Source of the DNA: a virus
Taxonomy: Duplodnaviria > Caudoviricetes
DNA: 41,550 nucleotides
Reading direction: 5' to 3' (one strand)
IMG/VR virus record: IMGVR_UViG_3300025368_000011
Location: 1 to 41,550 of that record
The notes beneath the pieces are model-generated. The model was not told the origin of the DNA. It was given only the letters and a program-made list of their open reading frames with translations, and ran no database searches. Below are positions 4,218 through 37,305 of this stretch, piece by piece (the stretch's first letter is position 1; the number at the start of each line of letters is the position of its first letter). Made by a program: the position numbers and the translations under genes.

Positions 4218-5264
4218 TTATGCGGCTACCTTCATACGCTCGCAAATATCAGTGAACGCCTTAGACTTCACAGTTGCGCCCTTACCAAAGGCTGCACTGT
4301 AGGCCCGTGCGAGCCCCGTGCCGTCCTTGTCGGTGTCGCGGGTAGCGGCTACATGGTCTACCCAATACGTCACCGCATTATAGGCACCCCATGCCGTGCC
4401 AGCCCGCGCCGAAGCCCCCGGACCTGCTACGTAGGCGTCTAAAAGCGCCGTTAGCTGATTACGGGTGCGCGCCTTAATCAGCGGGTTGCCGTTAGCGTCC
4501 TCTTTCACAAGGTCATCCGGGTTAAACCCGAGAAGCCCGGCGAAATAGGCGGTTACTTCATCCTCGCTAATCTTTGCCTCTAGCAAAGCGTTACAAACGC
4601 GAACCCGGTCAGTCAGCGTGCCCTCCGCTGCTTCCAGCACGGCGCGAATATCCGCACTGTTAAAATTGCTGCGGTGCGGTACGCGAACCAATTTGCCCGC
4701 AGACTTGGCGGCATACTGCGCCGCGCTATCCGTATTCTGACAAACCACTACAATCTGCCCGACGCTAACCGTCGTGGCGCGCGTGCCGTCAAACCCGGTA
4801 GCGAAGTTAAGGACCGTATCAATCTTGTCTGCGCCAATGGTAAGCCGGTAGGCGTCACCCAACATAGCCGACGCACACACAACCCGGCCGCCCTTGTAGG
4901 CCAGTGCCGTAGCAAAGGACAGATGGTTATCCCGCAGGGCGCTATCCCAGCCAGCCAGCAACTGCCCCGCCGACACATTCTTAAAGTCCGGCGAGACGAT
5001 GCCCATCACTGCGCCGTTATCTGCCCGGACGTTAGCGCGGTAGTCATCAACCGGCACATACTCGCCAGCAGCATTACGTGTGAAAAGAGGGGCCAGTTCG
5101 ACGCCGAAGTCAATTTGTGCTTTGCGGCAGATGTCTGCCGTCGTGTCGGTCGGCTCAATCGTGCCGATTTTCATACCGTGGCGCAGCCACCACGGATCGG
5201 GCGTATCAGCAGACTTAGCAAACGCGTAGACGCCGTTCTCGTTCGTATCAGCAATAAGACCCAT
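4218..5264 (-). CDS. DUF932/DUF945-family (TIGR03299-like) phage/plasmid protein, first gene of the early arm
   Basis: W..G N-terminus, VRADNGAVMGIVS, GFDGT, VVCQNT, HRS and GTAWGAYNAVTYWVDH motifs; GAGG RBS before ATG at 5264. Confidence 0.85.
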   Translation of the reverse strand: MGLIADTNENGVYAFAKSADTPDPWWLRHGMKIGTIEPTDTTADICRKAQIDFGVELAPLFTRNAAGEYVPVDDYRANVRADNGAVMGIVSPDFKNVSAGQLLAGWDSALRDNHLSFATALAYKGGRVVCASAMLGDAYRLTIGADKIDTVLNFATGFDGTRATTVSVGQIVVVCQNTDSAAQYAAKSAGKLVRVPHRSNFNSADIRAVLEAAEGTLTDRVRVCNALLEAKISEDEVTAYFAGLLGFNPDDLVKEDANGNPLIKARTRNQLTALLDAYVAGPGASARAGTAWGAYNAVTYWVDHVAATRDTDKDGTGLARAYSAAFGKGATVKSKAFTDICERMKVAA

Positions 5265-5708
5265 GATAATTACCTCATACATATGAATAGGTTAGTGCAA
5301 TGTGGAATGTACGGGCGGCACACAGGCCAGCAATACACTCCCTCTTGCACTATCCACGGCAGCCTAAGCGCTACACGGGTTCATGCCCTCCGCTACGGTC
5401 GCCCCCGGGTATGAGCCGGTATCTCGCGTAGCCCGCCTATTCACCTATTTATAAAGCGCCGGTTAGGGTCTCGTTCCCTCTGAGCGCCTACGCGGCCCGT
5501 GCCGCGCGTCTTACCTTTTTCCATCAAGCCCCAGTATCGCGCGCGAATGTTTCAGCCGTATTAAATATATATGAATTTATTATTACAGACGAACGGCAAT
5601 TCCAGAACGGAACATTTAATCGTGTGTGGATATACATGCCGCTGTAAGCCCCGGAGAAGCCGCAGGAGCGGCGCAACGTCTACCCCTAGCCTAGGTATCA
5701 CCCCGCTT

Positions 5709-5740
5709 TTATCCACAGGTTATTAACAACAATATCCACA
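5709..5740 (+). promoter_or_regulatory. DnaA-box cluster
   Basis: TTATCCACA 5709-5717 (perfect), TTATTAACA 5720-5728 and ATATCCACA 5732-5740; inverted copies at 5625-5633 and 5809-5817. Confidence 0.75.
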
Positions 5741-5778
5741 GGCTAGCGTGTGTGTGCTGTCAATAGATAACACCGCAG

Positions 5779-5795
5779 CTTAATGCAATCTTAAT
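5779..5795 (+). promoter_or_regulatory. OmpR-family direct repeat (PmrA/BasR/QseB-type; also fits CtrA TTAA-N7-TTAA)
   Basis: CTTAAT-GCAAT-CTTAAT. Confidence 0.55.
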
Positions 5796-5972
5796 GATTG
5801 CAATGTGTTGTTAATAAACCACACATATGTGTATAATGATCACAGATATAATAATCACGATAGTTAATACACGTGTATTAATACGTGCAATGCAATGCCT
5901 GTTAATCCATACGTGAACAACAATTCGTATGTGCGTGCGCTAGTGGTGTGGTCCACCACCACACCCTCCCAC

Positions 5973-5990
5973 ATTACACTTTTATTACAA
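5973..5990 (-). promoter_or_regulatory. Pho-box-like direct repeat
   Basis: Minus strand TTGTAATAAAAGTGTAAT, 11-bp period, resembling CTGTCATAAAACTGTCAT. Confidence 0.45.
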
Positions 5991-6049
5991 CACTATGTAA
6001 TCTGTAACAATCTTGTAACAATTGCATTGTAATATTACAATTCGATTAC

Positions 6050-6063
6050 ATGATACGAATCAA
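6050..6063. promoter_or_regulatory. FNR/Anr-type box
   Basis: ATGAT-ACGA-ATCAA, one mismatch to TTGAT-N4-ATCAA. Confidence 0.5.
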
Positions 6064-6069
6064 TCACAT

Positions 6070-6099
6070 ATGCAAATGCAAATGCGAATCATTCTTATT
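6070..6099. promoter_or_regulatory. Fur box
   Basis: AATGCGAATCATTCTTATT (6081-6099) preceded by in-register hexamers ATGCAA-ATGCAA. Confidence 0.7.
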
Positions 6100-6364
6100 C
6101 CTATTGGGCATAATGTAGTTACTACACTTGACATAGCCGGGTACCCCCGGTGCGCGCGACGGCGTTGGCGTGGTGCCCAATTCCCTCACAAAAAATAAAA
6201 TACCGTTTTCAAATGACGGGTAACAGGCACCTGTTTACGCCACGGATCCGTCGCCAAGGCGACGTTCTGACGTTTACCTGTAAATTTTTAAAATATTTAT
6301 AGATGCGCCCAATGGCGCATATCATATCTGTAATGTAATGTCAAACATTAAGTTTTCATTAATT

Positions 6365-6429
6365 TTTGAAAGATTTTTAAAATCTGGCATATTTTTACAA
6401 GTTTCAGTATATACTATGTAAGAGAGATA
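6365..6429 (+). promoter_or_regulatory. Putative phage-sigma late promoter
   Basis: TTTGAAAGATTTT-N8-GGCAT-N14-CAGTATATA-N4-GTAAGAGAGATA, the same element as 137-202 (minus); heads the whole plus-strand arm. Confidence 0.75.
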
Positions 6430-6622
6430 AGAGTAGGAGTGAAGACATAGGATATGTCTGAACGACTACTCTGATGCGGTAATAACTAATAGGCCCCGTA
6501 AGGGGCCATAGTGTGTAAGAGAAAGAGCGTCGGGTTCAGCCGACGCAAAGAATAAGAGAGCGCGGCGGCAAGCCGCGCTATAAGAGAGATATATTCTTAA
6601 CGCAGCGCAAACATCGCGCTGC
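6430..6622 (+). ncRNA. Structured late 5' leader or candidate ncRNA with five hairpins separated by AAGAGA-rich linkers
   Basis: Stems at 6430-6472, 6492-6507 (GUAA loop), 6527-6546, 6559-6579 and 6602-6622. Confidence 0.5.
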
Positions 6623-6654
6623 TTGCGCAAACCTTAACCGAGGGTATTTTGCAG

Positions 6655-7110
6655 ATGGCTAAACTTCCCAGAGAAATCCCCAAGTCTAACCCAGCCTTTG
6701 AGGGTAATGTATCTGGGGTAGCGTCTAACCGTAGTTCACAGACTCCATCCCTTCCGGATAGGATGACTGACCATTATCAGTTTGACGATATTATTCAGGC
6801 GGTAGCACCGCCTATTGACCCCAATATTTCGGGTGATACCCAGACTGAGGATACGTATACGTGGCTGGCCGGTACGATGACCGGCTGGCGCGAGAACGAC
6901 GACTACCGGCGCTACTTTGAGCGTAGCGAAGCCATGGAGCCGCTTATTTGCGATTACGATTGCAACGACGGCGACTACGACGATAACGGCGGTATCCCGA
7001 CGGCAATTGGTCAGCCGTACGGTCTGCATACGCCATATGCCAGCGAAACGGACGATCCCAAGACGGCCGAGCCGGGTTTTAACGTCCAGTCGGCCATGCG
7101 GAGAATTTAA
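6655..7110 (+). CDS. Hypothetical acidic late protein
   Basis: First ORF after the late leader; GAGGG RBS; Asp-rich segment CDYDCNDGDYDDNGG. Confidence 0.75.
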   Translation: MAKLPREIPKSNPAFEGNVSGVASNRSSQTPSLPDRMTDHYQFDDIIQAVAPPIDPNISGDTQTEDTYTWLAGTMTGWRENDDYRRYFERSEAMEPLICDYDCNDGDYDDNGGIPTAIGQPYGLHTPYASETDDPKTAEPGFNVQSAMRRI

Positions 7111-7536
7111 ATGAGCGGATACAGCGCCCCGCCGGGGCATTACAGCCCGGACACAATTCCAGACGAAATTCATAACCTGACAAGCGAATCGGTGACAAAG
7201 CACCAGCCCAAAAAGGATTCGCATGAGCAGGCCCGGGCCATTGCGCGGCACGAACTGTCGCGGCATTACGGCCCCAGCACGGACGACGAAGGTCATGTAG
7301 GCCAGCACCAGAACGACGTTGTTGCGCTGCGTAACGCGCATCCGCACCAGTCGCACACGGTCAATTACGTTGATGACGGCGGCCCGCGCAAGGACAGCTA
7401 CATGACGCACGGCTTTCAGGCCGTGCATATTACGCATCACAAGCGGGACAAGGGCGCGGAGCATCACCCGCCTAAGGGGCTTATGGTTCACGGTGCCGTG
7501 GACCATGAGCGGGATACCCAGACGATTTATGGGTAA
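7111..7536 (+). CDS. Hypothetical His-rich protein
   Basis: Abuts the upstream stop; 19 His in 141 aa. Confidence 0.75.
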   Translation: MSGYSAPPGHYSPDTIPDEIHNLTSESVTKHQPKKDSHEQARAIARHELSRHYGPSTDDEGHVGQHQNDVVALRNAHPHQSHTVNYVDDGGPRKDSYMTHGFQAVHITHHKRDKGAEHHPPKGLMVHGAVDHERDTQTIYG

Positions 7537-7744
7537 GGCGTATACTCCTACGGAGGCGTCGGCATCTACGTCGTCGCCTATTGCAAAGGGTATGCCGGGC
7601 GGAAATACGATGACGCACGGCCCGACGGCCCCGGTACACGGCGGTCTTCGCAACCCGGCGGCGCTACACACGCCCGGAGCCGGGCGACAGGCAATTAACT
7701 CGTATGGATCGTCCGTATCGGTTCATACGGTTCACATGGCTTAA
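7529..7744 (+). CDS. Small Gly/Pro/His-rich hypothetical protein
   Basis: ATG at 7529 overlaps the upstream gene end; shares motifs with 8903-9106. Confidence 0.65.
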   Translation: MGKAYTPTEASASTSSPIAKGMPGGNTMTHGPTAPVHGGLRNPAALHTPGAGRQAINSYGSSVSVHTVHMA

Positions 7745-7759
7745 CAACGGCGGTACATT

Positions 7760-8062
7760 ATGGCAATTTTTGATCTTGGCACGGCGCTTCTTGATCTTGA
7801 GGGTTCGTTTGTTCGTGAAGGCGAAAAAGTCGTTACGCTTGGTTTGGCGCTTAAGCGCGCCGTTCTTAGCGACGTAGACGAACTTGGCAATGCGCTTAAA
7901 GCGGACGCCAAGCTGGCGCGATACGAACTATTTCTTAAGCTGAAGCGCGCCGAGACTGAGGTTGTCGATTGGACTGCCGAAGAAATTGCGGCGCTTAAGT
8001 CTGCCGTTACCGTATTCCCGACTCTGGTAATGGGCCAGATTCGTGATCTTTTGAAAATTTAA
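7760..8062 (+). CDS. Conserved-looking phage protein of a type usually found beside fibre genes (possible fibre chaperone)
   Basis: RYELFLKL...TAEEIAALK...PTLVMGQ pattern; position before a fibre-like gene. Confidence 0.55.
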   Translation: MAIFDLGTALLDLEGSFVREGEKVVTLGLALKRAVLSDVDELGNALKADAKLARYELFLKLKRAETEVVDWTAEEIAALKSAVTVFPTLVMGQIRDLLKI

Positions 8063-8084
8063 ATTTTAATAAAAGGATTTACAC

Positions 8085-8900
8085 ATGGCTATTGGTACTC
8101 TTGTAGGCGCTCAGGTTCAGGATACGACCACGACGACTGGTACGGGCGCTATTACGCTTTCTAATACTGTTGCTGCTACGGCGCCAGCCAATACGACGAC
8201 GTTTGCTTCGCAGTTTGCTCCGACGGGCGTTTACCCGGTTGGTAACATTTTTTATGCTATTAGCGACGGTTCCAACATTGAGATTGGTCTTGGTACGCTT
8301 ACCAGTGCTACCAACCTGACGCGCGATTACATTCTTGGTTCGTACACTGGCGGCAGCATTTCGCTGGCAACTGCCAATGTTAATGCTACGCACGTTAACT
8401 TTGCGGCGGGCACTAAGCAGGTTTACAGCAACACTACGCTGTTTGGTACAAGCGTTGCGTATTGGTCGCGTATTCCCGACGATAACGCGGCAAACATTTT
8501 TAACGCCACTATGTCGGGCACGTTTACGGCAACCATTAACGCCGGCTCGGCTACGGCAACGGGTACGGTTCGTTACAAGATTAGCAACGAAGGCATCGTA
8601 ACGCTTCAGATTCCGGCAATTAGCGCCACGGCCAACGGCACGACGCTGACCATGACGGGTATTCCGGCTATCCTGTCCAACATGACGACGGAAGTTGTTC
8701 CGTGTCTTGTTACGGGCACCAGCACGGGCGGCGTGACGGTTCCGGGTCTTGTGTCTATTGCTGGCGGTGCCACGCCGACCAGCACGGGCACGGCGACGTT
8801 CTCGCAGTACACGTCGCTGACGACGGGCTATACTGCCACGTTTACTACGGCTGTTGTGAACGGCGTTCCGTCGCAGATCATCAGCTACCCGGCGTTCTAA
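8085..8900 (+). CDS. Fibre/appendage-like virion protein
   Basis: AAGGA RBS; VQDTTTTTGTGAITL...EIGLGT...VNFAAGTKQV N-terminal domain typical of phage fibre proteins; Thr/Gly-rich beta composition. Confidence 0.7.
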   Translation: MAIGTLVGAQVQDTTTTTGTGAITLSNTVAATAPANTTTFASQFAPTGVYPVGNIFYAISDGSNIEIGLGTLTSATNLTRDYILGSYTGGSISLATANVNATHVNFAAGTKQVYSNTTLFGTSVAYWSRIPDDNAANIFNATMSGTFTATINAGSATATGTVRYKISNEGIVTLQIPAISATANGTTLTMTGIPAILSNMTTEVVPCLVTGTSTGGVTVPGLVSIAGGATPTSTGTATFSQYTSLTTGYTATFTTAVVNGVPSQIISYPAF

Positions 8901-17974: not shown

Positions 17975-19024
17975 ATGGCTACCGCACTTGTTCTAAGCAA
18001 TGATATTTCCACCAGTCTTACTGGTGGCCCCGGTTCTCCTAATGACGTTCATGCCGCTAATTTCGTACCAGCCCTTTGGTCTGACGAAGTTGTTGCTGTC
18101 TACAAGTCAAACCTTGTTCTTGCTAACCTGATTCGCAAGCTGAATCATCGCGGCAAGAAGGGCGATACCATCCACATTCCGACTCCGGCCCGTGGTACGG
18201 CCGTTAACAAGGTTGCGCAGTCCGTTGTGACGCTTCAGCCGTTTGTTGACCAGTCTGGCGTTGGCGGCGTTACGATTTCGATCAATAAGCACAAGGAATA
18301 CTCGCGTCTTATTGAGGATATCGTTGACGTGCAGGCGCTTCCGTCGCTTCGCCGGTTCTATACCGACGACGCCGGTTACGCCATTGCCAAGCGCGTTGAC
18401 CGCGACATCTTTTTCCAGCTTGGCGCTGGTACGTCGGTCGCGGGTGCGCAGGGTACGTGTGTCGAAGACGCGGCGACGGGTAACGTTGCCTCTACTTCGA
18501 CGTGGAGCGCGTTTGTTGGTGACGGCACGACTCTTTGGAGCCCGACTGCCAATACCAACGCCGGTAACGCTACCGACCTGACGGACGTTGGCATCCGCCG
18601 TGGCGTGTTCAATCTGGATAAGATTGACGCCCCGATGGCTGGCCGTGCGCTTGTCCTTCCGCCGGTTGCCAAGGCTAACCTTCTTGGCGTCGCCCGCTTT
18701 ACGCAGCAGGCGTTCGTTGGTGAGGCTGGCCCGGCTAACTCGATCCGTAACGGCCTTGTTGGTAACGTTTACGCCATGGAAGTGTTTGTGTCGAACAACC
18801 TTCCGAACGCGCTGAACGCCAACGCGGGTGTCGGCGGTTCGATTGCGTGGATTCTCCAGCGCGATACGATGGTGCTTGTTGAGCAGATGGGTATTCGTAC
18901 CCAGCAGCAGTACAAGCAGGAGTTCCTTGCGGACCTCTTTACGGCTGATATGATCTACGGTACGGGTATGCTGCGTGGTGGCTCGGCTATTCCGTACGTG
19001 GTGACTGCGACCCTTGACGCCTAA
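17975..19024 (+). CDS. Major capsid protein (HK97 fold)
   Basis: FVPALWSDEV, KKGDTIHIP, LIEDI..VQ, GYAIAKRVD and D.IYG motifs; strongly biased codon usage. Confidence 0.92.
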   Translation: MATALVLSNDISTSLTGGPGSPNDVHAANFVPALWSDEVVAVYKSNLVLANLIRKLNHRGKKGDTIHIPTPARGTAVNKVAQSVVTLQPFVDQSGVGGVTISINKHKEYSRLIEDIVDVQALPSLRRFYTDDAGYAIAKRVDRDIFFQLGAGTSVAGAQGTCVEDAATGNVASTSTWSAFVGDGTTLWSPTANTNAGNATDLTDVGIRRGVFNLDKIDAPMAGRALVLPPVAKANLLGVARFTQQAFVGEAGPANSIRNGLVGNVYAMEVFVSNNLPNALNANAGVGGSIAWILQRDTMVLVEQMGIRTQQQYKQEFLADLFTADMIYGTGMLRGGSAIPYVVTATLDA

Positions 19025-19039
19025 TAGGAGCTAATCCTA

Positions 19040-19387
19040 GTGGCCGGATCCCGTAACGACGTACAATACGAGCAGTGGCAAATCCACTCTCGTTCAAAAA
19101 CAGCCAGTTATTCTGTGGCCGGGCAAGATTCCCGCGACTGCTTTAATAATCTGGGCGCTACGGGGTCCGTTACTTTTACGTTGCCAAAGGCAAAAGGAAA
19201 TGGTGTCGAATACTATTTTCTTGTTGCTACTTCGCAATTTCTTATTGTAGCCCCACAGTCTACCGACTTAATACGCGGTAAAGCTGCGGGGCTTTCTTAT
19301 TCGTCGAGCACGCAAGGCAACGTAATTTACGTATGCACGATTGTTCCGGGTATCTGGGATATTTTTTATAATAATGGATTTGTATAA
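19040..19387 (+). CDS. Small putative virion protein
   Basis: AGGAG RBS with GTG start; VTFTLP..G..Y.F beta motif. Confidence 0.6.
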   Translation: MAGSRNDVQYEQWQIHSRSKTASYSVAGQDSRDCFNNLGATGSVTFTLPKAKGNGVEYYFLVATSQFLIVAPQSTDLIRGKAAGLSYSSSTQGNVIYVCTIVPGIWDIFYNNGFV

Positions 19388-20361
19388 TGGCAGCTACGTT
19401 TAGACAGATTGTTAATAACGTGCTTGTAAATATTGGGTCTAGTCAAATTCCCGCTACTAATACAGTTATTACCGATACCTACCAATTACAGGTTTCTAAC
19501 TTTGTTCAGCATATAATGGACGAAGTTCAGCAGGCTACCCAGTGGACCGCTTTGCTTAATGTTATCAGCATGGCTGTGCCGGGTGGCAATTATACGTTTA
19601 CGGCCCCGCTTGGGCCGGGAAGCACGTCAGGTACGCTGACTACGGCGTACACTGGCCCGTCCGGCGCGTTTAACGTTGTGTTTAACGACAACGAAACCCG
19701 GACGCTTGCATTTACTAATGGATCTACGTCTGTTAGCTGGACCGGCGGGCTTAGCAGCCTCGCCAGCCTTACACCAGTTGTCAGCTTTTATTTTGGCCCC
19801 GGCCAGCGAATTATAGACGCCGGCACGGGCGCGTACATGACTAGTGACTCTCGCTTGTACAAAATGTACAAACCAGAATTTGGGCGCGAAGTGGCGCTTG
19901 TATTTGACACAAGCAGCTTTCCGCTGCCGTTTGTTCTTGGCGAAATGCCCGTGGCAAACACGCTTTATTACAATAACGTATTGGCTAATACGCCAGTGGC
20001 GTACAGTACAAATTATTCCATTTTGGATACTGGCAACGATAATGTTCAGATTTTGTTTTACCCTCCGGCTAACCAGTACAGAAACATACAGGTATGGGCC
20101 GTTATTCCGCAAAAGCGCATAGACCCGACAATTGCTGGAAGTGCGGTTTATCCGTGGCTTGGCACTGTCGGCCTTGATTCTCCTGTACTTGTTCCTAATC
20201 GTATAATTGAGATGGGCGCAAGTTGGTACGCTCTAGAGGAGCGTGGCGAGGAATTGGGCGCTAACAGTATGTTTACGGAAGAACGTTACAGAACGCAGCT
20301 TCAGGATATGGTTTCGCAAGAACTTGGTCGTTCGGGCGAAATGCAGATGATTATTAACTAA
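19387..20361 (+). CDS. Head-tail adaptor / tail tubular protein A-like, with inserted beta domain
   Basis: Position; TF.QIVNNVL N-terminus, P.A...Y and A...ALEERGE motifs. Confidence 0.7.
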   Translation: MAATFRQIVNNVLVNIGSSQIPATNTVITDTYQLQVSNFVQHIMDEVQQATQWTALLNVISMAVPGGNYTFTAPLGPGSTSGTLTTAYTGPSGAFNVVFNDNETRTLAFTNGSTSVSWTGGLSSLASLTPVVSFYFGPGQRIIDAGTGAYMTSDSRLYKMYKPEFGREVALVFDTSSFPLPFVLGEMPVANTLYYNNVLANTPVAYSTNYSILDTGNDNVQILFYPPANQYRNIQVWAVIPQKRIDPTIAGSAVYPWLGTVGLDSPVLVPNRIIEMGASWYALEERGEELGANSMFTEERYRTQLQDMVSQELGRSGEMQMIIN

Positions 20362-22040
20362 TGGTACTAGAAGCGCACATTCCGCCAACGCGGCAGATGG
20401 CCCCGGTTACAATTGTAACTCCGGGTAGCCGTGGCCTTAATACGTTGTCCGCTGGCGCGCTTATTGACAAAAGTTACGCGGTAACTGCTACGAACGCCGT
20501 TGTAGATGCCAACGGGCGGCTTGCAACCCGCAATGGATTTACGCTTGCTGGGCTTACTACAAACGCTACTACGTACACGGTTGGCGAATATAACGCAGGA
20601 AACGGCGTATATTATTTTGTTACGGCGGCTTTGCAGGGATCTGTAGGTTCGCAAACGTGGTCGTACAGCCTGTATCCGTACAGCGGCACGTCTCCTACTA
20701 ATTCCTCACTGACGGCCACTACGAGCGCGCAAAACAATACGGGGCGACCGTATTTTCAAAATTTTAATAATCGGCTCGTAATTTTTAATCGCGGCGGCTA
20801 TCCGACTGATCTTTATATTAGTGGCGGCGTGCCGCTCATAACTTCGTACGGTGCGTGGCCGGTTACTAGCGGCGTTGGGTGCTGCGCGTTTGGCCGCGTA
20901 TGGAGCGTTAGTCTTTCTGACGAACAGACTATTACGTACAGCGGCCTGCTTAATATCAACGATGTTAGCAGTTCAGACGCCGGCATTATTGATATGCACA
21001 CAATTTGGAGCAACGGAACTGACCGCGTAACGGCTATATTTCCGTTTAACGGCGCACTGGTAGTGTGCGGCACAAAGCATATCGTAATGTTTACGGATGG
21101 CAGAGGATCTACGATTGGCGTGGATCCTACGCAAATGTACGTATTTGATACGATTCTTGGCACGGGCTGCCTTAGCCAGTGGACAGTAGATTATATTGGT
21201 CAGGGAGACGTACTGTTTCTTTCTTCTAACGGCGTGCAGTCTTTGGCGCGTCTTACGCAAAATACGTCCAATCCTACGGAAGCGCTGACTAAATACGTAA
21301 ATCCGCAGTTGCTGACGCAGCTAGCTGCTAACGTAAACTATTCAACTTCTTACGTAGTGCCTAACCAGATGCCGTACGTGCCGATTAGCGGTTCGTACAA
21401 TAATCTTACAGGGCAGTATTTGCTGCATTTACCGGCCAATAGTTCGTCATATTGCGTTAATATGCGCAGGCAGTACCCAGACGATACTAATAATTTGTGC
21501 GGCGTAGTCACGCTATGGTCTTACAGCACGGCGTTTGGACCGCTGCTGCACAGCATAACCGACCATTATCAAAACGTACTTGGTGTTAACGGCAACGGTA
21601 CGCCAGTTATTTTAAGCGGGTACGCCGACGCCGGTAACACGTACGGGTTTGTTTATCAGTCTCCGTGGTTTGATTTTTCTCAGTTTGAGGGAACGCAGGC
21701 CGGAGAGCGTCTTAAATTGCTTAAGCGTATTCGCGGCATCTTGGCCGCGTCTGGTACTCCCAGCATTGCCCTGCAATGGAATACGGATTTCGGAACAATT
21801 CCGTCTTCTACAAGCGTGTCGTTTGCGGCTAGCGCCAATTTGACGCAATTTGGAATTAGTCAGTTTGGCTCTAATTCTTCGCCGCTTTCGCAATTTGGCG
21901 GCGGCAGCGCGCTTCAGCAATTTTCGTACGACGCGCGGGCGCGCGGGCAGTATTACCAGATGGGCATTACGGCCACGGTATCTAACTATTTTGCTATTCA
22001 ACAGCTTCAGCTTGACACTAAACTTGGGCGGATTACTTAA
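20361..22040 (+). CDS. Tail nozzle / tubular protein B (P22 gp10-like role)
   Basis: Position; PG.RGLN, GRL.TR.G, GRVW, GC.S..T and LFLS..GV.SL beta-propeller-type motifs. Confidence 0.78.
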   Translation: MVLEAHIPPTRQMAPVTIVTPGSRGLNTLSAGALIDKSYAVTATNAVVDANGRLATRNGFTLAGLTTNATTYTVGEYNAGNGVYYFVTAALQGSVGSQTWSYSLYPYSGTSPTNSSLTATTSAQNNTGRPYFQNFNNRLVIFNRGGYPTDLYISGGVPLITSYGAWPVTSGVGCCAFGRVWSVSLSDEQTITYSGLLNINDVSSSDAGIIDMHTIWSNGTDRVTAIFPFNGALVVCGTKHIVMFTDGRGSTIGVDPTQMYVFDTILGTGCLSQWTVDYIGQGDVLFLSSNGVQSLARLTQNTSNPTEALTKYVNPQLLTQLAANVNYSTSYVVPNQMPYVPISGSYNNLTGQYLLHLPANSSSYCVNMRRQYPDDTNNLCGVVTLWSYSTAFGPLLHSITDHYQNVLGVNGNGTPVILSGYADAGNTYGFVYQSPWFDFSQFEGTQAGERLKLLKRIRGILAASGTPSIALQWNTDFGTIPSSTSVSFAASANLTQFGISQFGSNSSPLSQFGGGSALQQFSYDARARGQYYQMGITATVSNYFAIQQLQLDTKLGRIT

Positions 22041-35299: not shown

Positions 35300-37305
35300 T
35301 TTACTTGCTCCCTTCCGTCTCTGTAGACGTTGTAACTGACTTCAGTTCCTTCTCCAAGAAACTTTCCAACTTTGATTCCGCATCCAAGCGGAACGTCGAA
35401 TCGTAGGCCATAAATTCTCTCAAGGTATTCATATACATCAAGCGTAAACGCTCGTTTGGCAACCTGTCGTATATCGTCCACAATTGCTGCGTCAATTTCG
35501 CACTGTACGCTGTCATGGACTGTGTTAACGACAAGAAGCTGTCCCGCATCCCTGTATCCCCTTGTACGATCCCAGAAGTATCTAAGGGCGATAGGTATGA
35601 TTTCAGCCGTTGCAAGTCCCTGAATTGGGTAATTAGAAACTTGAGTTCCGCAGTTGACGTGTCCGTTGTTGTTGATAGACGCATGGGGCCAGTAATACCT
35701 CAACCCCCACGGGGTTATTAGTTCTTTGTCCTTTAGTACGCGACTAATCCAAGTCTTTTGCGTCTCCGCTAGCGCATGGTATCGCTCCGCAAACGTCCGA
35801 TACCACCTTTCCTGCTCCGGTGTTCCAACCTTTCCTCCGTAGAGCGGTTTAAACGTCTCTGACTTTGCAGCTTGGCGGATTTCGATTGCTCTCTTATCTC
35901 CTGCTTTGTAGGCTTCAAGAAGTTCATAGTAGTCTCGCCGTGCCATGGCGGATCCGCTAAGGATATGAACGTCGAATGTCGGGTCATCAATATCAGCCTT
36001 TGCCTGTGGGTCATTACCAAGAAATGCGGCGACTCGGAACTCTAGCTGACTGCCGTCCGCCTCAAACATGAGCATATCTTCCCGTCTCGCTGTAAAGAGG
36101 CGCTTAAAAGCTCTAGGTAAATTCTGCAACTGAACAGATCCGTATTTGTTAGGGATTCCGCTAGAGGACAGCCTATGCGTTGCAGTTCTTGTCTGATTGA
36201 ATTCCGCGTGGAAAGTACCACCATAATCCTTGCAAATGCCCTGAAAATAATTAAGATTCTTAGATAGCGCGGAACCTACTTTGCCTATTTCATTCTTAAG
36301 TTCAATAAATGCCTTTTGTTCCGGCGTAACAGCGCGCAGCTTGTCAAGAGTTTTCTTGTCGGCTTTGCGCACGCCTGTCTTGGTCCGCTTAGGCTCTCCG
36401 CGCCTATCCCGTATTTCCTCAAACCCCAACTTATCGTACAGAAGGTCGGCTACCTGCTTAGGGCTGCGCCAGTTAATGCCACCCGCTAGCGCGTCAAACT
36501 CGGCCTCTAGTGTCACCAGCCGTTCCGTGTATTCGGCGTGTGCCGCGTTTACCCGGTCGCTATCCAAATGAACTCCGCACCGCTCCGTGTCCGCCAGTAC
36601 CGGCGTAATGATGCACCGGGTATACAGCACGGGTAGGCGCTTTGTATCCAGCAGTTTCTGCCGCTGCAACAAAAACAGCTTTTCAGTCGTCAGTACGTCA
36701 GTTGCGCAACGGCCAGTTACCCATTGCGGAGGCATATCCCGCACGTTAATGCCGTCTTTCATCCACATATCAACAATCGGGTCTTTCTGCGTCAATCCGT
36801 ATCGAACGCAACAATCAGCCAAACTAGTGCTAACAGGGGCAACGCCAGCCTCAAAATCTCCCGAAACAAGATTTCCGTAGAGGACGTACTCAGCGATTTT
36901 AGTATCAAAAACAAGGATATTGCTAAGATCAATACCGCATCTATATAGCCATCCCAACTCATACTTAGCGTTGTGGCACACGATGAAATCTGCCCGTTCA
37001 ATCGCGTCCAGCAGTTTAGACTGTTCATATTCACTGCCCCACTTGGCTCTTACGCGCCCCGAGTTGGCGGCGGTTTTCCAACAAGCAAGAGCAAGATTGT
37101 TGCGAGGATCAACAGGGTTGCCATATGCGCCATCCTCTACATACGTCTCAAAATCAAGAACAAGGTAATCATTACTCAGGAAAGTCTCCCAGCTTGTACT
37201 CGACAGCAGCACGCCCGGATCGCTTGGCTTCTCGGGCAAGGGCTGCGTTAAGCTGGGCCTTGATTTTGTTACCCTCTGCACGGCTGAGTCCGTCAAAATT
37301 ACCAC
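35296..37305 (-). CDS. Family A DNA polymerase with 3'-5' exonuclease domain (true start probably downstream of 37305)
   Basis: ExoI DFET, ExoII HNAKYE, TGR-equivalent THRLSS, motif A DGSQLEFR, motif B R..AK..TF..LYG, NYPIQ and motif C VHDS. Confidence 0.95.
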   Translation of the reverse strand: MVILTDSAVQRVTKSRPSLTQPLPEKPSDPGVLLSSTSWETFLSNDYLVLDFETYVEDGAYGNPVDPRNNLALACWKTAANSGRVRAKWGSEYEQSKLLDAIERADFIVCHNAKYELGWLYRCGIDLSNILVFDTKIAEYVLYGNLVSGDFEAGVAPVSTSLADCCVRYGLTQKDPIVDMWMKDGINVRDMPPQWVTGRCATDVLTTEKLFLLQRQKLLDTKRLPVLYTRCIITPVLADTERCGVHLDSDRVNAAHAEYTERLVTLEAEFDALAGGINWRSPKQVADLLYDKLGFEEIRDRRGEPKRTKTGVRKADKKTLDKLRAVTPEQKAFIELKNEIGKVGSALSKNLNYFQGICKDYGGTFHAEFNQTRTATHRLSSSGIPNKYGSVQLQNLPRAFKRLFTARREDMLMFEADGSQLEFRVAAFLGNDPQAKADIDDPTFDVHILSGSAMARRDYYELLEAYKAGDKRAIEIRQAAKSETFKPLYGGKVGTPEQERWYRTFAERYHALAETQKTWISRVLKDKELITPWGLRYYWPHASINNNGHVNCGTQVSNYPIQGLATAEIIPIALRYFWDRTRGYRDAGQLLVVNTVHDSVQCEIDAAIVDDIRQVAKRAFTLDVYEYLERIYGLRFDVPLGCGIKVGKFLGEGTEVSYNVYRDGREQVK

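Follow-up and report, generated by a model that had tools for sequence, protein, structure and literature searches.

A dense, reshuffled strip of host-type binding sites at the predicted early end of a family of two-armed podoviruses

Introduction

It is a long-standing question how a phage without an RNA polymerase of its own holds its DNA in the cell, or pulls it in, after the pressure in the capsid has dropped; the injection stop of T5 is still without explanation. In the locus described here, about 520 bp of noncoding DNA, at the point where two gene arms diverge, is packed with matches to the sites of many different host DNA-binding proteins. What might such a strip do? We analyzed the window, a stretch of 41,550 bp that is an entire virus record, together with its relatives and with cultured phages of similar organization.

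Results

Two gene arms diverge at a noncoding region. The window has the layout of a two-armed podovirus. Leftward from 5264, wrapping round the record, lies the early (replication) arm, with genes for a DUF932 protein, an amidoligase, an amidotransferase-like protein, a sigma-region-2 protein, primase, helicase, and polymerase; rightward from 6655 lies the late arm, with terminase, portal, capsid, and lysozyme. The gene layout bears out the initial annotation, which had the arms diverge at the strip. The intergenic region between them (5265..6654), predicted to hold the genome ends, has an identical layout in all eight relatives that cover it (G001 to G008). Convergent arms are combined with the absence of an RNA polymerase among the 64 ORFs in a PHROG scan of the window, as in short-repeat two-armed podoviruses, and a tyrosine integrase (PF00589) was found in none of five genomes scanned.

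The early arm begins with the DUF932 gene (4218..5264, minus strand; Pfam PF06067, E = 1e-29; 348-amino-acid form P0121), which has GAGG before its ATG at 5264. The first late-arm gene (6655..7110, plus strand) is without a PHROG or Pfam match and is 36 to 48% identical in eight relatives. Three terminator-like hairpins precede the late arm (6492..6579, minus strand; four in the region versus 1.2 expected). No tRNA was found in the window, and the one Rfam match in 5265..6654 is far below the cutoff and not credible; in two distant relatives, visual inspection of the divergence region showed clusters of tRNA-like sequence on its late side (G010, 18909-19600; G011, 37017-37200). Elsewhere in the early arm, 262-2896 encodes the Sigma70-region-2 protein, a class II amidotransferase-like protein, and the amidoligase, the last two being conserved in relatives. 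A long (TA)n microsatellite between the primase and sigma-like genes spans the contig break (1-112 and 41530-41550).

All eight runs that contain the window sequence are freshwater metagenomes, and none of the runs listed is an RNA data set. The capsid protein has its best match, at 32%, in cyanophages and none in Zobellviridae; the DNA polymerase is 38 to 40% identical to those of VpV262-like phages, and the terminase reaches at most 37% among the best 30 of 445 matches. By capsid (at most 32%) and polymerase (38 to 40%), there is no close cultured phage. A capsid-alignment scan of genomes gave three distant contigs (40 to 56%) in two metagenome-assembled genomes and no usable host.

The strip is rich in symmetric and repeated motifs. 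The site-dense strip (5620..6136), predicted to be the first ~520 bp of the early end, has a symmetry z of 7.1. Perfect inverted repeats with arms of at least 6 nt number 12 in 5620-6150, and direct repeats of at least 6 nt at a period of 10 to 12 number 4; over 300 dinucleotide shuffles, the corresponding values were 2.3 ± 1.5 (maximum, 7) and 0.52 (maximum, 3). The motif density, which the initial annotation had proposed to be unusual, is thus above that of shuffled controls, and all 18 motif stretches examined read as described and lie where it had placed them. When 78 tiles of the genome were scored for symmetry, only the one with the (TA)n microsatellite came out above the one that starts at 5842, and among 21 strips scored, that of the window ranked first. 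The strip sequence is not an assembly artifact, since a contig of run X2, whose study code differs from that of run X1, the possible source of the window, covers 4988-6325 with zero differences.

At the inner end lies a cluster of DnaA boxes (5625..5836). The perfect box, TTATCCACA, is present as a single copy in 41.5 kb, at 5709; boxes at 5625, 5732, and 5828 have one mismatch, the last being absent from the original list, and those at 5720 and 5809 have two. These 212 bp hold 4 of the genome's 12 DnaA sites with at most one mismatch. A TTGACA hexamer points toward the early genes without a consensus -10 (5758..5763, minus strand), and none of six promoter-like matches in 5200-6750 is a consensus sigma-70 promoter on the minus strand by Escherichia coli rules, which may not fit the host. 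Next comes a PmrA/QseB- or CtrA-like direct repeat, CTTAAT-N5-CTTAAT, overlapped by TGCAATC-N5-GATTGCA (5779..5802, plus strand); it is exact in locus L241 and partial in L244. A second TTAA-N7-TTAA repeat lies on the late side (6345..6363, minus strand), where ACATTAAG occurs 13 times in 10 relatives right of the predicted genome end. The window thus has this form at 5780 and 6348; relatives carry CTGT-N8-ACAG boxes.

The middle of the strip (5821..5931) is occupied by symmetric sites, namely, perfect palindromes of 12 and 18 bp, two copies of TATAATrATCAC, and CATACG-N12-CGTATG (5908-5931), with a PhaR-like TGC-N3-GCA pattern at 5886. Neither the 18-bp palindrome nor the CATACG dyad has an exact 11-mer in common with relatives. 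From 5973 to 6050, TGTAAT and TGTAAC half-sites form 11-bp direct repeats and palindromes in the style of the OmpR/PhoB family, PhoB itself being unsupported. The response regulator of CTTAAT may also be the one whose half-sites make up the Pho-like and TGTAACA repeats, in which case the number of distinct proteins would be overstated. An FNR-like site (6050..6063) finds no support in relatives. A Fur-like box with upstream hexamer repeats (6068..6099) has a near-identical counterpart 39 bp from the predicted end in L248, and a TGTAGT-T-ACTACA palindrome with a TTGACA lacking a -10 (6114..6133) completes the strip. As originally noted, a promoter or gene to go with the individual site is missing in most cases. 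LexA, CRP, NtrC, IHF (strict pattern), and sigma-54 sites had no match in the window's strip.

A conserved palindrome marks the predicted genome end. Next to the strip is a conserved GC palindrome around GGGTACCC (6137..6150), the predicted site of the terminase cut and of the early end (~6143), which is called the landmark here. The window and each of G001 to G008 have a single copy of a GGG-core-CC palindrome followed by a double A-tract, always at the arm divergence; in the window it is at 6139 (1 of 14 raw matches). On the early strand, the landmark reads T-tract, G-run, short core, and C-run, the same build as at the mapped early ends of tf and LUZ24, and it is because of this likeness that we infer a genome end near 6143. 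TTCCC with a double A-tract (6181..6200, plus strand) is a likely packaging signal; the double A-tract is present in 20 of 23 loci, and to the right of the landmark no dyad ranks above AAAA-N3-AAAA.

The genome end would be accompanied by a terminal repeat of ~180 bp (5960-6143). Its inner border is predicted, from position and from likeness to mapped borders, at a palindrome with a G-rich tract (5945..5972, minus strand) that includes GTGGT-CC-ACCAC. A G-rich tract (at least 9 G in 14 nt) lies ~170 bp inside the landmark in 15 of 21 loci, against 1.8 in shuffles, and the best such tract ends 130 to 230 bp inside, a range set post hoc, in 17 of 21, against 5.4. G-rich inner repeat borders are also found in LUZ24, RIO-1, VpV262, and tf. 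Matches to KOPS were discarded, being the G-rich tract itself.

The proposal that the termini lie at the arm divergence fits the end-like signal beside the strip, but read depth does not map an end there. A contig of run X3 stops at 6144, a weak indication at a depth of ~6. The breaks of run X1 at 5626 and 8167, in Logan contigs, are Nextera adapter tips, and contig ends of relatives do not cluster at the landmark. Over 5626-8167, the contig depth in X1 reaches 39.1, whereas the flanks have 26.5 and 22.4 (a ratio of 1.5 to 1.75). A 180-bp repeat would give <10% extra depth, and the rise is larger and longer, so the end model is incomplete. Terminal repeats of 711 bp exist in such phages, as the Klyazma report describes (PMC9960094).

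Relatives keep dense sites in altered order. Capsid alignment gave the syntenic relatives G001 to G008 (78 to 95%), and the first late gene as the query gave 45 loci, of which 34 were analyzed, with 5 duplicates and 6 loci with <100 bp upstream left out. The landmark, chosen for each locus by eye from regular-expression matches with the genome-wide count as a check, was seen in 28 of the 34; the six others have at most 782 bp upstream, and L259 and L263 may be true misses. After removal of duplicates and two very short loci, the final set was the window and 22 relatives. DUF932 was rejected as an anchor; as a single query it gave no relative, and its alignment gave only distant phages, whose loci were reused as a control. 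Tight pairs or triplets of perfect DnaA boxes lie within 6 kb of DUF932 in a number of unrelated phages (L072, L089, L091, L092, L098, L099, L116, L118, and L120).

When the strip region was compared with G001 to G009 by blastn, only short motifs aligned, and 5500-6300 had no match in the phage collection. Relatives had been expected to keep dense host-type sites in altered order, which is what was found: the region is unalignable, and the mix of sites is reshuffled in the 22 relatives, taking in LexA, CRP, sigma-54, DnaA, IHF, Fur, and PmrA/QseB-type sites and -35 hexamers without a -10. Eight site types pooled gave 62 matches in the strips of the 22 relatives versus 12 expected (5.9 per kb), 9 versus 7.0 in family coding DNA (0.75 per kb), and 59 versus 27 in 117 noncoding stretches of unrelated phages (1.2 per kb). 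Phage noncoding DNA therefore generally holds some sites, at one-fifth of the strip density. Within 520 bp, at least one of the eight types is present in 20 of 22 relatives and at least two are present in 14. With the window included, the 400 bp next to the landmark on its left have 4.8 to 9.0 sites per kb, and the DNA more than 600 bp to the left has 0 to 2.4 per kb. The late side also bears sites (33 versus 7.4 expected), with a peak of 7.8 per kb at +200 to +300. The dense, reshuffled strip of sites is real and family-wide.

Individual site types differ in support. The sites were searched as consensus patterns, none coming from a matrix library, and 25 were tested; single P values near 0.02 therefore carry little weight. 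The six types of the initial annotation had been chosen on the window alone. Its DnaA label was upheld in relatives, 4 of 22 loci having boxes on the left side of the landmark (10 versus 1.4), with clusters at a similar distance in L221, L225, L228, and L240. The PmrA/QseB-type repeat was upheld as well (11 versus 2.5 for the two sides together), and L241 contains eight overlapping 11-mers from the box of the window in exact form. Fur gained weak support (4 versus 0.6). FNR stayed at expectation (1 versus 1.2; none left and one right of the landmark in 22 relatives, with 0.6 expected on each side), PhoB was at chance level (22 versus 23), and FadR had no match in the 22 relatives.

Seven further types were noted from G001 to G008 before another 14 loci were fetched, the exact patterns being fixed after many of those 14 had been viewed. 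In these 14 loci, matches numbered 6 versus 0.13 for LexA (P = 6e-9), 6 versus 0.63 for CRP, 11 versus 2.6 for sigma-54, 23 versus 5.0 for TTGACA, 6 versus 2.0 for PhaR-like sites, and, on the late side, 19 versus 0.53 for IHF (P = 3e-23). Of the 12 positions outside the search pattern, the eight LexA boxes, which we take to be of the gamma/beta type, agree with the SOS consensus at 7.9, where ~3.5 would be expected; L232 carries three. The LexA dyad CTGT-N8-ACAG also ranked third among dyads present in at least 3 loci in an unbiased scan of 5,632. ATTA-N8-TAAT was the top de novo dyad in relatives, and ACATAA is a family motif (57 versus 13). IHF sites and DnaA clusters occur together in the strips of L225, L228, and L240.

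Sigma-54 sites are mixed in orientation (7 versus 9), as are TTGACW hexamers (29 leftward versus 28 rightward). A -10 follows 7 of these 57, near the background of ~10%, with 6 of 29 leftward and 1 of 28 rightward. NtrC alone was marginal in close relatives (2 versus 0.4 and 3 versus 1.0; not significant), as was NrdR (3 versus 0.78 and 4 versus 1.6). PurR, ArgR, and TrpR had no match in the strips, and MetJ, CpxR, PhoP, Lrp, HrcA, Chi, and parS were not enriched there; a near-perfect parS-like palindrome was seen in the arm-divergence region of L294, near position 21260 of G015.

Of six distant relatives, four (G011, G012, G014, and G015) have few or no panel matches, and the six pooled have no DnaA, LexA, or CRP sites. 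G010 and G013 each carry three NtrC sites upstream of sigma-54 sites, in G013 as an ordinary-looking promoter directed toward the early genes.

Several local arrangements were observed. In L225, the stretch at +240 to +335 from the landmark, ahead of the late genes, carries a PmrA-type repeat, a near-perfect Fur box, a LexA box, and an IHF site in immediate succession. L225, L228, and L236 carry TTGACT, 13 bp, and CATAAT ~30 to 55 bp left of the landmark and directed toward it, a promoter-like element with a short spacer that perhaps serves the phage sigma-like protein or repeat duplication. L221 encodes, at 2340-2534 on the minus strand, a 64-amino-acid Fis-family helix-turn-helix mini-protein (PF02954, E = 2e-9), which adjoins the strip in G001; G003 has a similar ORF, and the window has none. 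Similar to the DNA-binding end of PilR/NtrC-type activators, the mini-protein could have a dominant-negative effect.

Two cultured phages carry tandem host-type sites at mapped ends. Ten cultured phages were scanned with the site panel. In VpV262, just inside the 138-bp left repeat (L269:173-486), there are six sigma-54 sites versus 0.32 expected, four of them forward and ~41 to 55 bp apart, and three FadR sites versus 0.07. In RIO-1 (NC_021300), just inside the 121-bp left repeat (L274:146-300), 21 overlapping matches to Met boxes versus 0.88 form two runs of tandem 8-bp repeats, the second of which abuts a -35. The two records annotate no such sites. FadR-like sites were also found in 1.070.O (two) and 1.015.O (one), whose ends are unmapped. 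FadR and MetJ sites thus occur in phages of Vibrionaceae and Pseudoalteromonas, which fits the host range of these regulators, and not in the window's family. With this panel, comparable arrays were absent from LUZ24, tf, ICBM1, phiEco32, and Pf-WMP3, and Klyazma was marginal. The early ends of LUZ24 and tf have four to five TTGACA hexamers, all directed toward the early genes, of which four in tf and two in LUZ24 are annotated sigma-70 promoters.

Discussion

The sites observed here exceed shuffles, are reshuffled among relatives, and lie against a landmark. Our leading though tentative reading is that they form a strip whose occupancy holds and gates the entering DNA. The early end would enter the cell first, so that the strip would be the first ~500 bp of entering DNA; several host DNA-binding proteins would bind it and hold the incoming end in the cytoplasm, and the bound proteins would gate further entry until host RNA polymerase engages the early genes. 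The ~180-bp repeat would put the strip's outer third on both ends of the virion DNA. Judging from the sites, these phages likely load available host proteins onto DNA that likely enters first. Occupancy would count above protein identity, and each lineage would therefore collect whatever tight sites its host offers. This reading fits best because the types of site change from relative to relative while their position and density stay the same, because they face both ways and come in tandem, and because 50 of the 57 -35 hexamers have no -10; the tandem sites just inside the mapped early ends of VpV262 and RIO-1 also favor it. Against it stand the late-side sites, which an entry role does not need, the lack of comparable arrays in LUZ24, tf, ICBM1, phiEco32, and Pf-WMP3, the ordinary NtrC-sigma-54 promoter layout of G013, and the depth rise in X1. 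Moreover, nonspecific nucleoid proteins need no special sites, coating any DNA, and proteins bound to DNA are displaced by RecBCD.

The mixed orientation, tandem copies, and fast turnover of site type and order poorly suit the fixed geometry of promoters, and most LexA boxes overlap no recognizable promoter. It is nevertheless conceivable, if somewhat unlikely, that the strip is an upstream control region at which activators and repressors of the host adjust early (and late) transcription to carbon, nitrogen, iron, DNA damage, and envelope state, with lysis deferrable in starved hosts. Activators may be needed, since the 64 ORFs scanned include no RNA polymerase and the window lacks a leftward sigma-70 promoter of consensus type; the NtrC triplets upstream of sigma-54 sites in G010 and G013, the Met boxes abutting a -35 in RIO-1, and the excess of a -10 after leftward over rightward TTGACW point the same way. 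Precedents are CtrA at phage promoters and the use of Spo0A by phi29 (PMC9437464). Tandem promoterless copies, such as the LexA boxes of L232 and the Met boxes of RIO-1, and sites on both sides of the landmark, as in L225, would suit a DNA sponge instead. Amplified genomes would then titrate host regulators, derepressing SOS, iron, methionine, fatty acid, or carbon storage regulons, and DnaA and sigma factors would be drawn off the chromosome. The strip region is the only large noncoding space, and decoy sites titrate regulators in E. coli (PMC7826281, PMC8599769). We consider this role unlikely. Activator sites (CRP, NtrC, sigma-54, and IHF) are as enriched as repressor sites, and one or two sites per genome would act only late. 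NrdR is the repressor whose release would help a phage most. Its sites are marginal in the strips, from which PurR, ArgR, and TrpR sites are absent.

An improbable alternative is that phage proteins use the strip as a replication origin or a packaging region; DnaA and IHF would then aid initiation, and the other matches would be look-alikes. The cumulative GC skew is lowest at 5501-6500, but skew also tracks gene direction. Depth is raised over 5626-8167, DnaA clusters accompany IHF sites in three relatives, ACATAA and ATTA-N8-TAAT are family motifs without an assigned protein, and the phage encodes a primase, helicase, polymerase, and sigma-like protein. However, no more than 4 of 22 relatives have DnaA boxes on the left of the landmark, and the LexA, CRP, and sigma-54 excesses would be left unexplained. 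Chance symmetry in AT-rich noncoding DNA is very improbable as the whole explanation. Noncoding DNA of unrelated phages is itself 2.2-fold above shuffles (DnaA, 31 versus 5.5), and three of the six original labels fail, but the window's z of 7.1, the LexA and IHF excesses in later-fetched loci, and the coding control (9 versus 7.0) largely refute chance for the strip as a whole; they do not do so for single unassigned palindromes. Occupancy, promoter control, titration, and origin function need not be mutually exclusive.

If occupancy of the entering end is what matters, a broader and more doubtful possibility is that unrelated lytic lineages build an interchangeable docking strip there from their hosts' tight operators, with transcription factors as mechanical clamps and not regulators. 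Candidate clamps, held with the same doubt, would be LexA, Fur, CRP, NtrC, MetJ, FadR, DnaA, and the sigma-54 holoenzyme. The family offers a natural substitution series, with the predicted sites of many different host proteins at one position.

Comparison with known systems

Our searches of the main texts of openly accessible literature, to which the VpV262 and RIO-1 originals do not belong, brought up no description of a terminal panel that is mixed and interchangeable; the passages covered from a review (PMC13330545) and a preprint (10.1101/2023.10.13.562163) contain nothing on terminal sites. What is already described is DnaA boxes in T5 and single-regulator promoter cases (CtrA, Spo0A, and LexA).

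In T5, the injection stop signal is Repeat Region 3 of the left terminal repeat, where DnaA binding has been proposed to halt entry (10.1101/866236). Like the strip, it is noncoding and rich in repeats and palindromes, with DnaA boxes that include the TTATTAACA variant, and it is part of the first-entering DNA, as is predicted for the strip (10.1101/866236). T5 has seven to eight paired DnaA boxes in long conserved inverted repeats, in fixed order, several kilobases inside a long repeat (10.1101/866236), whereas the window's strip lies within 520 bp of the predicted end, with reshuffled order and types and many non-DnaA types. DnaA pairs 3 bp apart in long inverted repeats, as in T5, are absent from the window, which has one pair 2 bp apart (5709 and 5720), a longest inverted repeat of 28 nt at 71%, and no conserved order. 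A general PHROG scan of the 64 ORFs named no A1 or A2 gene, the genes of T5 two-step injection.

LUZ24 (Bruynoghevirus) and tf (Krylovvirus) share with the window convergent arms, the lack of an RNA polymerase, and ~1 kb of noncoding DNA at the early end, and they have a direct repeat of ~185 bp cut inside a G/C palindrome after a T-tract (PMC3517423). The left (early) end of tf is head attached, and its authors liken it to the first-entering end of T5 (PMC3517423). Unlike in these phages, the -35 hexamers here are mostly orphans, in both directions, amid regulator sites; tandem sigma-70 promoters all facing the early genes were not found in the window (0 of 6 matches on the minus strand, by E. 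coli rules).

CtrA binds and regulates phage promoters in phages of Alphaproteobacteria, where it is linked to lytic deferment (PMC9437464). Those virulent phages also carry host regulator sites, and the TTAA-N7-TTAA form is found here too, but there one regulator acts at many gene promoters with binding shown, whereas here the predicted sites of many regulators lie in one terminal strip. The LexA-controlled phage GIL01 likewise has host SOS boxes on phage DNA, but it is temperate, with the boxes at a defined promoter (PMC4551915, PMC6182141); the window has no LexA box, and the integrase was absent from all five genomes scanned, so the temperate class with an integrase and SOS boxes at a lytic promoter does not describe it. 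Compared with an oriC- or datA-like locus, the window has the DnaA cluster and lacks a strict IHF site; L225, L228, and L240 have both.

Like the window, the zobellviruses VpV262 and RIO-1 have two arms; their short repeats are mapped (PMC6775973). Our scan places tandem host-type sites just inside their early ends. They differ in that the window's capsid has no match in them and in that their sites are of the sigma-54, FadR, and MetJ types. In these cultured phages with mapped ends, the pattern names candidate host proteins, and in uncultured phages, predicted site sets hint at the hosts.
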